DNA of 63,957 nucleotides, filler included, from Actinomycetota bacterium (GCA_009886115.1; 5 parts of 5 records of this genome joined end to end with filler, not necessarily neighbours in it), one strand, 5' to 3'; shown: positions 2,723 to 38,223, counted from the whole stretch's first letter. Numbers and translations are program-made. Notes: generated by a model not told the origin, from the sequence alone.

Positions 2723-4489
2723 GTGCCCATGCTCGTGCGGCCTCTGCGTCGGATGATCCAGCAGAACACGCTGAAGTTGCTGTGCATGTCGCTGTGCGGT
2801 GCCATGGTGGTGATAGGGGGCGTCGGTGTGTTCGGGTTGGTGAGGGCCGAGGACGATGTCGACGATCTGACCAACCGTCTCATTCCCGCGCATGACCAGC
2901 TGCTCGAGGTTGACCGCAGCCTCTTGGAGGCCCAGCTCTCACTCGAGCGGGCGATGAAGGAATCCGACCCGGGCCAGCGTTACCTCGACCTCGAAATTTC
3001 AGCCCACTCCATCGTGAAAGGAGGGGCGGCATGGAACACCTACCGCTCCCTCATCGTCGGAGGTGAACAGGTCGTCGAGCTCGAGACGGGGTTCGAGACC
3101 ATCCGGGCAGCCTGGCTCGTGGTGGTCACTACTCTCCAGTCGAGAGCCGCTCTCACCGGGGCGTACACCGACCACGCGACGGCTTCGCGCATAGTGACGA
3201 GCCGTGCCCGCTTCGAGATCGTGCGCTATTTCGCCCGGCGCATCGACCAAGCCGTCTACGGCCCCGAGATTACCGATCGGGGCGCGCTGATCGGATCCGA
3301 GGCGCACACAACGCGGAACGTGCTGATCCTCGTCTCGACGAGCGCGTTCGTCTTCGGCTCCATCGTGAGTCGTTCCCGAGTACGTGCGTCCCAGATCCAG
3401 CAGCGGGCGATCGAGGATCGGGATCGACTGCGGGAGGCCCAATCGCATCGCAACGAGTTCGAGGCTCGACTGCATCGAGCGCTCGAGATGTCCAAGACCG
3501 AAGACGCGGCGTTGACCACCATCACGATGGCGCTCAATCAGGCCGCGCCCGGAGCACCGCTCCAGCTGCTCATCGCCGATTCGAGTCGGGCGCACCTCCG
3601 CCAAGCCCTCACCACCGACATGGACAACCCCGAAAGAGGCTGCCGGGTGCTCACCCCGTCGGAATGCCCGGCCGTCAACCGGGGCCAGACGTTGGTGTTC
3701 GAGACGAGCGCTTCCTTCGACGCCTGTCCGTTCCTGCGGGACCGAGGTGACGCCCGATCGGCGGTGTGCATTCCCGTGAGCATCATGGGTGTGGCATCCG
3801 GCGTGCTGCACACGACGGGACCAGATGGTCATCGCGCCGACGCGGATCAGGTCTTGGCGCTCGAACAGATCGCCGCCAAGGCCGGGGAGCGGGTCGGGCT
3901 TTTGCGGGTTTTCAACCGCTCCGAGTTGCAGGCCGCGACCGACCCACTGACGGGGCTGGCCAACCGGCGCAGCCTGGAACAGCAGGTACAGGACCTGACG
4001 AGGGCCGGCACTCGTTACTCCGTGGCCTACGGTGACCTCGATCGTTTCAAGCTGCTCAACGACGATCACGGCCATGAGACCGGCGATCGCGCACTGCGCC
4101 TCTTCGCTCGGGTGCTCCAGGAGTCGGTTCGTGATGTCGATATCGTGGCGCGCTGGGGGGGCGAGGAGTTCATCGTGATCCTGCCATCGACCTCGGCCAC
4201 GAATGGGGCCAAGATCCTCGAACGCGTGCAGGAGGAGCTCGTACTCGCGCTCAGCTCAGGGACCGCACCGCAGTTCACCGTGAGCTTCGGTGTCTGTGGA
4301 TTCGACGACGCGACCACCCTCGACGAGCGGATCGAGGTGGCCGATTCCGCGTTGCATGCCGCCAAACTCGCAGGCCGGAACCGGGTCGTGGTCGCCGGGG
4401 TCGAACCGTCCGAGGGCCCGGAGGCCGGAACCCTCGAGCAGCTCGTCGGCACCTTCACCTCGTCCGCCACCGCCACGGAGGAGTCGTGA
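2723..4489 (+). CDS. Membrane-bound diguanylate cyclase (2 TM sensor, GAF-like, GGDEF)
   Basis: TDPLTGLANRR, DLDRFK, RDVD I-site, ARWGGEEF; two hydrophobic segments. Start could be 2729. Confidence 0.9.
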   Translation: MPMLVRPLRRMIQQNTLKLLCMSLCGAMVVIGGVGVFGLVRAEDDVDDLTNRLIPAHDQLLEVDRSLLEAQLSLERAMKESDPGQRYLDLEISAHSIVKGGAAWNTYRSLIVGGEQVVELETGFETIRAAWLVVVTTLQSRAALTGAYTDHATASRIVTSRARFEIVRYFARRIDQAVYGPEITDRGALIGSEAHTTRNVLILVSTSAFVFGSIVSRSRVRASQIQQRAIEDRDRLREAQSHRNEFEARLHRALEMSKTEDAALTTITMALNQAAPGAPLQLLIADSSRAHLRQALTTDMDNPERGCRVLTPSECPAVNRGQTLVFETSASFDACPFLRDRGDARSAVCIPVSIMGVASGVLHTTGPDGHRADADQVLALEQIAAKAGERVGLLRVFNRSELQAATDPLTGLANRRSLEQQVQDLTRAGTRYSVAYGDLDRFKLLNDDHGHETGDRALRLFARVLQESVRDVDIVARWGGEEFIVILPSTSATNGAKILERVQEELVLALSSGTAPQFTVSFGVCGFDDATTLDERIEVADSALHAAKLAGRNRVVVAGVEPSEGPEAGTLEQLVGTFTSSATATEES

Positions 4490-35022: not shown

Positions 35023-35666
35023 GCGCGCGCCGTCGCGACACTCGGCGCGACCGGCTCTCGAAGCCGCTGCTACGCCGGGGCCTCGGGGTCCACTACGACC
35101 CCGAGGCGTTCGGCAAGTTCTCCGAAGGCATCGCCCGACTGTTGGGAACGGGGCGCTACCTCGCCGCGCAGACCGTCCTCGTGATCGTCTGGATCGGGTT
35201 CAACATCGCCGCTGTCGCCTTGCGTTTCGACAAGTACCCCTTCATCTTGTTGAACCTGGCGTTCTCGACGCAGGCGGCCTACGCCGCTCCCTTGATCCTG
35301 TTGGCCCAGAACCGCCAGGCCGAGCGCGACAAGATCCAGCTCGAGAACGACCGCGCGGTCAACACCCGAACCCAGGCCGACACGGAGTACCTGGCCCGCG
35401 AGATGGCGTCGATCCGGATTCAGCTCTCCGACGTGGTGACCACCGAGGACCTCGCCGACGCCATCGACCGGGTCACCCACGCCATCGAACGGCTCGAGCT
35501 GCGCTTGTCTGCCCTGGTCCCGCTCGGCGTGTCAGGTGCGCCTGGTGCGCTTGGCGCGCTTGGCGCGCTTGCTGGGTCTGGCCCGACGGGTGTGTCTGGC
35601 CCGGCACGCCCGTCCGGTACGCCTGGTACGTCCGGTACGTCCGGGGACGGCTCAGCCGGCCCGTAG
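35019..35666 (+). CDS. DUF1003 membrane protein
   Basis: FDKYPFILLNLAFSTQAAYAAPLILLAQNRQ; ATGA-coupled; low-complexity tail. Confidence 0.88.
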   Translation: MSARRRDTRRDRLSKPLLRRGLGVHYDPEAFGKFSEGIARLLGTGRYLAAQTVLVIVWIGFNIAAVALRFDKYPFILLNLAFSTQAAYAAPLILLAQNRQAERDKIQLENDRAVNTRTQADTEYLAREMASIRIQLSDVVTTEDLADAIDRVTHAIERLELRLSALVPLGVSGAPGALGALGALAGSGPTGVSGPARPSGTPGTSGTSGDGSAGP

Positions 35667-36656
35667 CTCGGCGATCACCCGCGCCGCGGTGTCGGGATCG
35701 CGCTGCGAGAGGAAGATCGTCGTCCGGTCGACGATGCCGCCGTGACGCTCGATGATCGTGCGGGCCAGACGCTCGGGCGCGGCCCGTACGGCGAACGTGT
35801 CGAGGATCTCGTCGTCGATGAGCGAACCCATGTCGTCCCAACGACCCTGCTTCGACAGCCCGTTGAGCTCGTCGGCGATGGCGCCCCATCCGTGGATCTC
35901 GAGCACGGGGCGGTAGGCGGGCGTCGAGCCGTAGAACGCGATCTGCTTGCGGGTTGCGTCGGCGTTGCGCTCCATCTCGGCATCGTCGGCGCCGGTGACG
36001 ACAAAGCCCGGGAGCACGACCTCCACGTCGGCCCGGGTGCGTCCGGCCCGGGCCAGGCCCCGGTCGAGTGCCGGGAGCGTGACCTCCCGCAGGTACCGCT
36101 CGTTGGTGAACGCATGGAGCAGCAGCCCGTCGGCCACCTCGCCGGCCACCTCGGTCATCAGCTCGCCCACCGCCGCGAGCCAGACCCGCGGCGGACCGGC
36201 AGCAGAGCGCTCGGGCATGAACATGGGCGTCATCAACGTGTGGGTGTAGTACTCGCCCCGGAACTCGAGCTTGGCGCCGTCGTTCCACGTGGCCCAGATG
36301 GCTCGCATGGCGAGGATGAGCTCGCGCATGCGAGCTGCTGGGTGCGACCACGGCATCGAGAAGCGCTTGGTGATGTGCGGCTTGATCTGCGAGCCGAGCC
36401 CCAACACCATGCGGCCGCCCGAGAATCGCTGGAGATCGTGCGCTGTCTGCGCCAGGGTCATGGGGTTGCGGGCGAACGCCACGGCGATCGATGTGATGAG
36501 ATCGACCCGCGTGCTGTGTTCGGCCGCGACGGCCAAGGGGAGGAACGGGTCTGCGTTGACCTCCGCTGTGATGACCCCGTCGTAGCCGAGGGCCTCGAGC
36601 TCGCGCACCCGCTTCGCTGCCCCCGCCAGGTCCCCCACCGCCGCGTCGATCTTCAT
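35652..36656 (-). CDS. LLM-class, probably F420-dependent oxidoreductase
   Basis: DPFLPL, IAVAFARNP, LGLGSQIKPHI, QIAFYGSTPAY. Confidence 0.88.
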   Translation of the reverse strand: MKIDAAVGDLAGAAKRVRELEALGYDGVITAEVNADPFLPLAVAAEHSTRVDLITSIAVAFARNPMTLAQTAHDLQRFSGGRMVLGLGSQIKPHITKRFSMPWSHPAARMRELILAMRAIWATWNDGAKLEFRGEYYTHTLMTPMFMPERSAAGPPRVWLAAVGELMTEVAGEVADGLLLHAFTNERYLREVTLPALDRGLARAGRTRADVEVVLPGFVVTGADDAEMERNADATRKQIAFYGSTPAYRPVLEIHGWGAIADELNGLSKQGRWDDMGSLIDDEILDTFAVRAAPERLARTIIERHGGIVDRTTIFLSQRDPDTAARVIAELRAG

Positions 36657-36728
36657 GGCCGTGCACCCTACGACCCCTCGGGTGGCGCGGCCATGGGGCG
36701 ACGGGCCGATGGGGGCTAGCGTGCAGCC

Positions 36729-37178
36729 ATGCGTACTGGTGAGCTCGTCGACGATTTCGAGGCGACCGACCAGCATGGAGCGTCGGTACGACTCTCCGAG
36801 CTGGTGGCCGAAGGCCCGATCGTCTTGTTCTTCTACCCCAAGGCCATGACCCCCGGCTGAACTCGCGAGAGCTGTCATTTCCGCGACCTGGCCGCCGAGT
36901 TCTCGGAGCTCGGAGCCCGGCCCGTGGGAATCAGCGCCGATCCGGTGGATCGGCAACGCGAGTTCGACGCCAAGAACGACCTGGCCTTCCCGTTGTTGTC
37001 CGATCCCAGCCGGACGGTCGCCGCGCAGTTCGGCGTGAAACGGTTCGGGAAGCTGCCGAGCAAGCGAGCCACGTTCGTGATCGATCGTGATCGCCGCCTG
37101 CTGGCCGCCATCACCAGCGAGACCAGCATGAACAAGCACGCCGACGACGCCCTGGAGGCTCTGCGCAGCGCGCAGTGA
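36729..37178 (+). CDS. bcp: Bcp/PrxQ peroxiredoxin with in-frame TGA (codon 44) at the peroxidatic position; candidate selenoprotein
   Basis: ATG36729 MRTGELVDDFEATDQHG...VLFFYPKAMTPG-TGA(36858-36860)-TRESCHFRD...GISAD...FPLLSD...RATFVID...LRSAQ stop. Frame otherwise intact, 149 aa. Confidence 0.85.
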
Positions 37179-37201
37179 CCCCACCCCATCGCATCGCAGC
37201 G

Positions 37202-37248
37202 TTCTTTGTGTCCACGGCGGCGTCTGCGCTCACCGTGGACGCAAAGAA
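37202..37248. repeat. 47-bp palindromic element, divergent family B member
   Basis: TTCTTTGTGTCCACGG...CCGTGGACGCAAAGAA; same length and similar ends to 56546 and 16491. Confidence 0.65.
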
Positions 37249-37302
37249 GCGGGGAGCGTCCCGTAACGCACCGGTGTCGTAGGGCACTGGTATGGTCCGC
37301 GG

Positions 37303-38223
37303 GTGCCTCTTCCGTTGCCCGTGAGCCTCTCGCCCAGCAAGGTCTCGGCGTTCCAGGACTGCCCGATGGCCTTCCGGTTCTCGGCGATCGACCGCATCCC
37401 CCAGCCGCCCACCCAGGCCACCACCAAGGGCACGCTGGTGCACCGCGCGCTCGAGTTGCTGATGTTGCGCTCGGCGCCGGAGCGCACCCCCGAGCACGCC
37501 GCCGCCGACCTCGCCACCGCCCGGCGGGAGATCTCGACCCATTCCGACTTCATGCTGCTCGGCCTCGACGAAGCGCAGGAGGCCACCTTCTTCGCCAGCG
37601 CCGAGGTCCTGCTCGATCGCTACTTCAGCCTCGAAGACCCCACGACCGTCCGCCCCATCGGGCTCGAGGTCATGGTCTCGACGGCACTGCCCACCGTCGA
37701 CGGCAGCGTCGCCCTCGGCGCGGGCGACACCCCGGTGGTGCTGCGAGGCATCATCGACCGCCTCGAGCTCGACGCCGACGGCGAGCTGATCGTCACCGAC
37801 TACAAGACCGGCGCCGTACCCGGCATGGGTTTCGAGCAGTCGAGGATGGCTGGGGTCAACATCTACGCCATGCTCGTCGAGCGCGTCGTCGGACGGCGGC
37901 CCGTGCGGGTGCAGCTCCTGTATCTCTCCAAGCCCGAGGCCATCATCGCCTACCCCACCGAGCAGAAGGTGCGGGCGGTCGAGAAGCGCACCGCGGCCCT
38001 GTGGAGCGCCGTCGAGCGGGCGTGCGAGCGCGACGACTTCCGCCCCCGCCCCGGCAAGCTCTGCGACTACTGCTCGTACAAGCCCTACTGCCCGGCGTGG
38101 GGTGGGGATCCGGCACAGGCCATCGAGCTCCGCGAGATGCTGAAAGACGGTTCGCGCCAACGGCTCGGCGCCAACCCCGTCCCCCGCACCGGCGACGCGC
38201 CCATCGGCGTCGGCGCGCTCTGA
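37303..38223 (+). CDS. RecB-family PD-(D/E)XK exonuclease with Cys cluster
   Basis: LSPS..F.DCP, GTLVH, GIIDRL, DYKTG, CDYCSYKPYCP; TATGGT 6 nt before the GTG (probably leaderless). Confidence 0.88.
   Translation: MPLPLPVSLSPSKVSAFQDCPMAFRFSAIDRIPQPPTQATTKGTLVHRALELLMLRSAPERTPEHAAADLATARREISTHSDFMLLGLDEAQEATFFASAEVLLDRYFSLEDPTTVRPIGLEVMVSTALPTVDGSVALGAGDTPVVLRGIIDRLELDADGELIVTDYKTGAVPGMGFEQSRMAGVNIYAMLVERVVGRRPVRVQLLYLSKPEAIIAYPTEQKVRAVEKRTAALWSAVERACERDDFRPRPGKLCDYCSYKPYCPAWGGDPAQAIELREMLKDGSRQRLGANPVPRTGDAPIGVGAL

Follow-up and report, generated by a model that had tools for sequence, protein, structure and literature searches.

Insertion of selenocysteine (Sec) in bacteria is thought to need a SECIS element immediately 3′ of the UGA codon, of which that of E. 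coli fdhF is the best-studied case, and gene finders search a window of 16–37 nt for it. In the part of a 2026 review that sets out the bSECIS model (PMC13188914), the element has a loop of 3–9 nt with G among its first two bases, a stem of 4–16 bp, an energy of −7.5 kcal/mol or lower and a distance of 16–37 nt from the UGA. The same part of the review places a subset of putative bSECIS elements outside this model (PMC13188914).

Among the proteins made in this way, Prx (PF00578/COG1225 Bcp; TxxU) is listed as a prokaryotic selenoprotein family in the relevant sections of two reports (PMC9312934, PMC13188914), and the corresponding section of a third records 12 members and 5 Cys-to-Sec conversions (PMC1794560). 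The locus described here carries a Bcp-type peroxiredoxin frame with a TGA at the catalytic position. Judged from sequence comparisons, it is very probably a real, unannotated selenoprotein gene.

A peroxiredoxin frame interrupted by a single TGA

The window, that is the whole 63,957-nt stretch of DNA that was analysed, is a scaffold that strings together no fewer than five contigs (C16, C17, C19, C20 and C26) with 352 N, so its parts are not known to adjoin one another. Its source genome, G000, is a metagenome assembly of 224 contigs (95.6% complete, 3% contamination) in which the peroxiredoxin gene lies on contig C19. The initial annotation had proposed a 149-codon Bcp frame, broken only by a TGA and hidden from the ORF track. 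Re-reading of the window bears this out. From the ATG at 36729 to 37178 on the plus strand the sole in-frame interruption is the TGA at 36858–36860 (codon 44), and the ORF list cuts the gene into pieces of 43 aa (36729..36860) and 84 aa (36924..37178).

The read-through frame matches AhpC-TSA (PF00578, E 1.9e-34, 118.7 bits, cut-off 26) over residues 4–124 and, as a second Pfam match, Redoxin (E 4.3e-20). Among solved structures, PDB 5epf_A ('Peroxiredoxin') comes nearest, at E 1.6e-50 and with a collinear alignment across residues 1–147. With the UGA read as Cys, scores stayed below the cut-offs of the NCBIfam models for Bcp (equivalog NF006960, 93.5 bits, cut-off 140), PrxQ (NF053650, 89 bits, cut-off 260) and PrxU (NF040737). 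The PrxU score of 26.4 bits, where the cut-off is 270, places the protein outside the prototype PrxU subfamily.

The TGA was claimed to stand at the peroxidatic Cys of PxxxTxxC, and orthologues agree. The site reads P37-K-A-M-T41-P-G-U44 in G000. Within the order, 30/30 Cys-type orthologues have Cys in the TGA column, where G000 and G001, a second species of the same genus, have U; in the larger set described below the column is Cys in 93/93 Cys forms and U in 19 Sec forms. On either side of the column the order-level alignment varies little or not at all, with Y-P-x-A-[ML]-T-x-G before it and T-x-E-x-C-H-F behind it. Cys49 is invariant in the 32 order-level rows and present in 18/19 Sec forms and 93/93 Cys forms of the larger set, and Arg113 is found in 19/19 and 93/93, respectively. 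A resolving Cys at +5 and an active-site Arg are what we take to be the marks of the BCP/PrxQ atypical 2-Cys subfamily. By its residues, the motif P37-x3-T41-x2-U44-x4-C49 is assigned to this atypical 2-Cys Bcp/PrxQ type. One Sec form, L093, is without the resolving Cys, E-S-K-H replacing E-S-C-H.

Table 1. Positions of the features discussed (window coordinates unless a contig is named)
Feature	Position	Strand	Basis or remark
Sec-Bcp/PrxQ peroxiredoxin gene	36729..37178	+	149 codons plus TGA stop at 37176–37178; orthologue alignments
UGA predicted to be read as selenocysteine (residue 44)	36858..36860	+	peroxidatic position of P37-x3-T41-x2-U44
TGT, resolving Cys49 (U-x4-C)	36873..36875	+	conserved column
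Domain I, long 65-nt hairpin starting 10 nt past the UGA	36871..36935	+	closing helix, columns 14–27/67–78 of alignment A2
Apex hairpin of domain I, loop 36903–36905	36895..36913	+	RNAalifold and pair counts
hp3, 8-bp hairpin, GGU loop 36944–36946	36936..36954	+	candidate SelB-binding SECIS hairpin; loop 83 nt past the UGA
TAGCGT, −10-like TAnnnT box whose end lies 6 nt from the ATG	36717..36722	+	read from the sequence; putative
Luciferase-like monooxygenase gene, divergent neighbour	35652..36656	−	PF00296, E 1.4e-62; context only
Ten other candidate Sec genes (six AhpC/TSA, three CMD, fdhA), on G000 contigs outside the window	C80:18558-19829 (fdhA); C3:4016-4393, C168:5818-6156, C92:802-1134, C125:8726-9073, C128:77429-77725, C27:31622-31951, C122:2753-3001, C23:40415-40663, C120:7943-8122		

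Conservation of the TGA and of the frame beyond it

A decaying Bcp gene that has suffered a TGC-to-TGA nonsense mutation would look much like this locus at first sight, as one substitution is enough and gene callers split the frame. The relatives of the gene argue against such a pseudogene. In the collection, G001 is the only other genome of the host's taxonomic family, and its orthologue is 93% identical with the TGA at the same codon. Over codons 45–147 the two differ by a dS of 0.295 and a dN of 0.051 (omega 0.17). Downstream of the TGA there are 18.5 synonymous changes in 75.8 sites and 11.5 non-synonymous changes in 233.2 sites, and the binomial p for the synonymous excess is about 8e-6 to 4e-5. 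Purifying selection thus continues past the TGA, which is not the behaviour of a pseudogene.

In the order, an orthologue at E ≤ 1e-40 was found in 69/264 genomes; TGA occurs only in G000 and G001, and 67 frames are open. selA was found in 166/264 genomes, therefore most carriers of the Cys form could decode Sec. The orthologue tally includes two genomes flagged as unpublished (G048 and G049, the latter being Cys-form row L053) and the selA tally seven (G112, G049, G092, G091, G048, G242 and G113); the Sec-form evidence rests on none of the flagged genomes.

In the whole collection, the best 80 loci, with one genome per species, comprise 17 with TGA, 61 with TGC and 2 with TGT, and the eleven closest all carry TGA. 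By title, the TGA loci come from MAGs labelled Acidimicrobiales, Actinomycetota, Ca. Microthrix, Myxococcota, Deltaproteobacteria and, in one case, Gammaproteobacteria. These 17 together with G000 and G001 make up the 19 Sec forms that were compared with 93 Cys forms, and relatives of both kinds are therefore at hand (19 TGA, 93 TGC/TGT). Each of the 19 Sec forms has an open frame of 148–155 aa with exactly one TGA. Their mean pairwise amino-acid identity is 0.649 upstream of the TGA and 0.667 downstream, so identity past the TGA is at least as high as before it. selA scored above the cut-off in 18/18 genomes searched (17 Sec-form genomes plus that of L096, a Cys form) and also in G001, which with G000 gives 19/19 Sec-form genomes. 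The same TGA in 19 genomes with intact frames, the omega value, the even identity, the presence of selA and a Sec-form-specific RNA structure with compensatory changes (see below) all speak against the pseudogene, and we regard it as very improbable.

A tree of 112 rows, built without the Sec/Cys column, groups the 19 Sec forms in a single 20-member clade (SH-aLRT 95) nested within Acidimicrobiia Cys forms, and two state changes suffice. The sole Cys form inside it is L096, from a Ca. Microthrix MAG, which has TGC in a genome that keeps selA. L083, L084 and L087 (labelled Myxococcota/Deltaproteobacteria) and L086 (Gammaproteobacteria) hold a Sec-Bcp within this otherwise actinobacterial clade, and their genes have the same RNA structure as the rest of it. 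Either horizontal transfer or mis-binned contigs would explain their placement.

A sequencing or assembly error would not be out of place in a fragmented metagenome assembly with 224 contigs and 352 N in the window. Against an error, however, Logan contigs from three DNA runs of three studies, one of which may be the source sample, cover 36858–36860 without a difference, and the TGA recurs in independently assembled genomes of other species. The DNA-run contigs differ from the window only past the stop codon, at 37183 and 37187. Nor does TGA appear to be a sense codon genome-wide: it ends bcp itself in G000 and G001, and selA, selB, selD and the 67 Cys-form orthologues are open without an internal TGA. 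Because TGA is also the stop codon of the same gene, recoding would be local. Error and genome-wide reassignment are, together, scarcely credible. A metatranscriptome contig (run X8) spans only 36934–37123 with 0 differences; since it does not reach the TGA and may stem from DNA carry-over, it shows neither expression nor read-through.

Selenocysteine machinery and other candidate selenoproteins

A selenoprotein implies Sec machinery in the host, and all of the parts looked for were found in G000 above curated cut-offs. selA (458.7 bits) lies on contig C73 and adjoins selB (320.5 bits, with its neighbours in frame), selD (398.4 bits) lies on contig C57, and tRNA-Sec (66.2 bits, anticodon TCA by ARAGORN) is again on C73. 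The peroxiredoxin gene (C19) and the machinery (C73, C57) are tied together by binning only. The selA match begins at model position 2 in G000 and the Myxococcota MAGs and at position 50–68 in most actinobacterial Sec-form MAGs (L081–L115), where the frame is open over about 420–440 aa. The actinobacterial Sec-form group may have a shorter SelA N-terminal domain.

The best molybdopterin-oxidoreductase match in G000 (fdhA, contig C80) contains a single TGA in the context CNRT-U-HAPSV (C80:19601–19599, minus strand), followed by a canonical hairpin, CGUCGUC-GGUCU-GGCGACG, whose GGUCU loop begins 18 nt past the UGA. A single in-frame TGA is also present at redox motifs (TPG-U-T, WASW-U-GC, G-U-xxC and C-x2-U) in 7/13 AhpC-TSA matches and 3/18 CMD (AhpD-like) matches. 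Because of the fdhA TGA with its canonical hairpin and the TGA at redox motifs of other frames, the Sec machinery is, as read from the genome, in use.

Seven of the ten other candidates (Table 1) have a passing hairpin 17–25 nt past the UGA with a loop that holds G then U. The candidates on C27 and C125 have a weaker hairpin at 17–25 nt, judged by eye, and a hairpin scan past the UGA of the C23 candidate gave none. With fdhA, at least 7 Prx-like candidates and 3 AhpD-like candidates, G000 looks selenoprotein-rich.

RNA structure downstream of the UGA

The Sec forms share a conserved two-hairpin RNA structure that is specific to them. It was derived from A2, a gap-free alignment of the 19 Sec forms, in which RNAalifold predicts a long hairpin at columns 14–78 (domain I) and, immediately behind it, one of 8 bp at columns 79–97 (hp3). 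In a refined structure of 33 pairs, 86.8% of the cells are paired, and this drops to 29–49% when the partners are slid by 1–3 columns. 12/33 pairs changed on both sides (shuffles 5.0 ± 1.5, 0/500 as high); because the 19 Sec rows are akin to one another, the shuffle controls overstate this significance.

Compensatory changes occur in four pairs of hp3, namely 81/95 (C-G, U-G, U-A, A-U), 84/92 (U-A, C-G, U-G), 85/91 (C-G, U-A) and 86/90 (C-G, G-C, A-U, G-U). L090 and L094 keep the hp3 helix with an encoded peptide altered from D-P-V-D-R to D-S-V-S-R. Scored over A2 pairs 80–86/90–96, leaving out the eighth pair 79/97, hp3 is complete (7/7) in 15/19 Sec forms and has 6/7 pairs in three more; 0/93 Cys forms have at least 6/7. 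The GGU loop is kept in 17/19 Sec rows. In L093 (3130-3240) hp3 carries the loop GGUCU, as does the fdhA hairpin of G000, and two closing-helix pairs of domain I are changed on both sides.

The closing helix of domain I is 94% paired in the Sec forms, and all 12 of its pairs form in 12/19 Sec forms and 2/93 Cys forms. An 8-pair subset also forms in 26/93 Cys forms, so part of this helix is imposed by conserved codons. The 84-nt fold has a median z of −3.44 in the Sec forms (64% GC) compared with 0.0 in the Cys forms (72% GC). Its minimum-energy fold contains both closing helix and hp3 in 13/19 Sec forms and 0/93 Cys forms. In G000 the fold reaches −50.6 kcal/mol (z −4.98, 0/200 shuffles as stable). 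Codon choice is frozen at codons 47–76 in Sec forms only, a synonymous-site constraint seen at S48 (AGC, 0.95), L61 (CTC, 0.93), P72 (CCG, 0.92), R75 (CGG, 0.94) and D71/D74 (GAT, 0.84/0.87).

Two members of the Sec clade depart from this pattern. L096 (3130-3240), the nested Cys form, has lost both Sec-specific hairpins (z +0.42), as if Sec had reverted to Cys and the SECIS had then decayed. L085, from an Acidimicrobiales-labelled MAG (3130-3240), keeps the TGA within an open frame of 149 aa; hp3 is absent (2/7 pairs), the apex helix is weakened, with 5/6 pairs kept, and the RNA does not fold stably (z −0.19). Either this copy is decaying or hp3 is dispensable.

Other structures were considered. 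The initial annotation had named as SECIS a helix between CGAGAGCT (36866–36873) and AGTTCTCG (36898–36905). These can pair on paper, yet the helix lacks conservation, its terminal pair being broken in G001, and it appears in no minimum-energy fold and not in the consensus structure of the 19 Sec forms. That part of the initial annotation did not stand. A small hairpin right after the UGA (GGAAA/UUUCC, loop GCUGUCA, at about 10 nt) is not predicted by RNAalifold; it is in competition with domain I's closing helix, and a ribosome with the UGA in its A site would cover it. An Rfam search of 36700–37200 returned nothing relevant, only a sub-threshold match to mir-341 on the minus strand (E 0.33).

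Fit to the bacterial SECIS model

Hairpins with bulge-free stems were scanned over 110 nt past the UGA of the 19 Sec forms. No positionally conserved hairpin of this kind was found at 16–37 nt. The only one that obeys the loop, stem and energy rules is hp3, which does so in 14/19 Sec rows at 82–83 nt; in G000 it has 8 bp, a GGU loop and −12.9 kcal/mol, all within the bSECIS limits. The apex hairpin of domain I, 42 nt from the UGA, follows the loop and energy rules in 3/19 rows. With hp3 at 82–83 nt and the apex at 42 nt, both outside the 16–37 nt spacing, the bSECIS constraint is broken.

The closing helix of domain I begins with its first base 10 nt past the UGA, and its last base abuts hp3. 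With domain I left out of the count, 10 + 8 = 18 nt therefore separate the UGA from the GGU loop, as in fdhA. We infer from this arrangement that domain I folds the intervening RNA away. L085 with its TGA but no hp3, the closing-helix pairs that conserved codons impose and the kinship of the Sec rows weigh against this reading. Binding of SelB to hp3 is the reading we lean towards, by a modest degree.

SelB might instead recognise the apex of domain I (36895–36913) or the whole two-hairpin fold of a real selenoprotein gene, which would leave hp3 an accessory role such as stabilising, pausing or regulating. The apex helix is Sec-specific, with 6/6 pairs in 14/19 Sec forms and 2/93 Cys forms, and has undergone two compensatory changes. 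Its spacing of 42 nt is nearer to the 16–37 nt rule, and L085 keeps 5/6 apex pairs without hp3. The loops, however, tell against the apex. Its own loop varies (GCN, UCG, UCC, GGU, ACC, AAC) and in G000 lacks a G among its first two bases, and it passes the loop and energy rules in 3/19 rows compared with 14/19 for hp3. The hp3 loop, GGU in 17/19 rows, matches the G[G|U] pattern and is similar to the loops with GU in the remaining candidate selenoprotein genes of G000. Recognition of the apex or of the whole fold seems to us rather unlikely, and hp3 is kept as the preferred candidate for the SelB site.

Upstream region and neighbouring genes

The gene and a luciferase-like monooxygenase gene diverge across 72 nt, and the arrangement is the same in G001. 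The monooxygenase probably starts at the ATG at 36656, which was picked by eye, rather than at the far-upstream start of an overlapping 510-aa mechanical ORF. That ORF overlaps bcp. A PD-(D/E)XK nuclease lies downstream of bcp. Neither flanking gene, monooxygenase or nuclease, showed a link to selenium.

The TAGCGT box that had been noted 6 nt before the ATG is present (Table 1); its counterpart in G001 is TACCCT, equally far from the ATG. In both species a TAnnnT thus stands at −12 without a Shine-Dalgarno sequence, and L081 and L115 have the same upstream arrangement. Most of the remaining Sec forms carry a Shine-Dalgarno sequence of the GGAGG type instead, and their TAnnnT lies farther upstream. 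A sigma-70 consensus scan of 36400–37400 found 0 promoter-like sites; this consensus is uninformative for actinobacterial promoters. From these signals, a leaderless bcp mRNA is plausible in the host genus.

Discussion

The initial annotation had read the locus as a selenoprotein with Sec at the peroxidatic site in a Sec-decoding actinobacterial lineage. Machinery, relatives, selection and independent assemblies agree with that reading. The account as a whole, of an intact Sec-Bcp/PrxQ gene whose UGA is recoded through a conserved Sec-specific RNA structure, we hold to be highly probable. We infer incorporation of selenium at the UGA from these comparative data: SelA, SelB, SelD and tRNA-Sec would insert selenocysteine at 36858–36860.

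The predicted product would be a Bcp/PrxQ-type (atypical 2-Cys) thiol peroxidase, a catalytic role taken from its family. Sec44 would attack the peroxide and become a selenenic acid, Cys49 would resolve this to a selenenylsulfide, and a thioredoxin-type reductant would presumably reduce the selenenylsulfide. Recoding would be directed by the conserved RNA structure within the coding region, which only Sec forms possess. Domain I would begin about where the mRNA exits a ribosome paused on the UGA, and SelB may bind the GGU hairpin hp3, with the surplus distance taken up by folding of the long hairpin. That the Acidimicrobiales Sec-Bcp clade has a new bacterial SECIS architecture, a GGU hairpin 83 nt away that is returned to about 18 nt by a 65-nt hairpin, is a tentative proposal with a chance a little short of even.

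Should the proposal be true, the spacing rule for bacterial SECIS elements concerns folded geometry, not linear distance. The clade would then offer a natural test case for the positioning of SelB, SECIS and ribosome. SECIS-dependent searches may miss genes with a displaced hairpin of this type, and the gene is one more that annotation pipelines have split in two. Among the papers listed by a literature search, none dealt with long-distance bacterial SECIS elements or with Acidimicrobiia selenoproteins, which is no proof of absence.

The enzyme type is already known, and the protein is a further member of a catalogued selenoprotein family, an incremental addition to it; the displaced candidate SECIS is the unusual part. 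Like the Prx selenoprotein family, the protein has the AhpC/TSA fold, has predicted Sec as the peroxidatic residue of PxxxTxxU, has Cys homologues at the Sec column and occurs only in Sec-decoding genomes. Unlike the rest of that family, the present clade sits among Acidimicrobiales Cys forms, nearest to enzymes of the PDB 5epf type, and its conserved candidate SECIS breaks the family-independent bSECIS spacing rule. With the Cys-type BCP/PrxQ enzymes (PDB 5epf_A; E. coli-type NF006960) it shares a full-length collinear alignment, the conserved Arg, a length of about 150 aa and the P-x3-T-x2-[C/U]-x4-C motif. It differs from them in that Sec would replace the peroxidatic Cys, and in scoring 93.5 bits against the NF006960 cut-off of 140.

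The RNA element can be compared in the same way. Like the bSECIS consensus, hp3 has a GGU (or C-GGU-G) loop that fits N1-G[G|U]-N-N2, an 8-bp stem and a place within the coding sequence, 3′ of the UGA. Unlike the consensus, it is separated from the 10-nt spacer by a conserved 65-nt hairpin. Its closest counterpart in the same genome is the fdhA SECIS, whose loop likewise starts with G-G-U (GGUCU compared with GGU) and which lies at the same 18 nt once domain I is skipped. The fdhA hairpin adjoins its UGA directly, whereas in Sec-Bcp domain I stands between the two.
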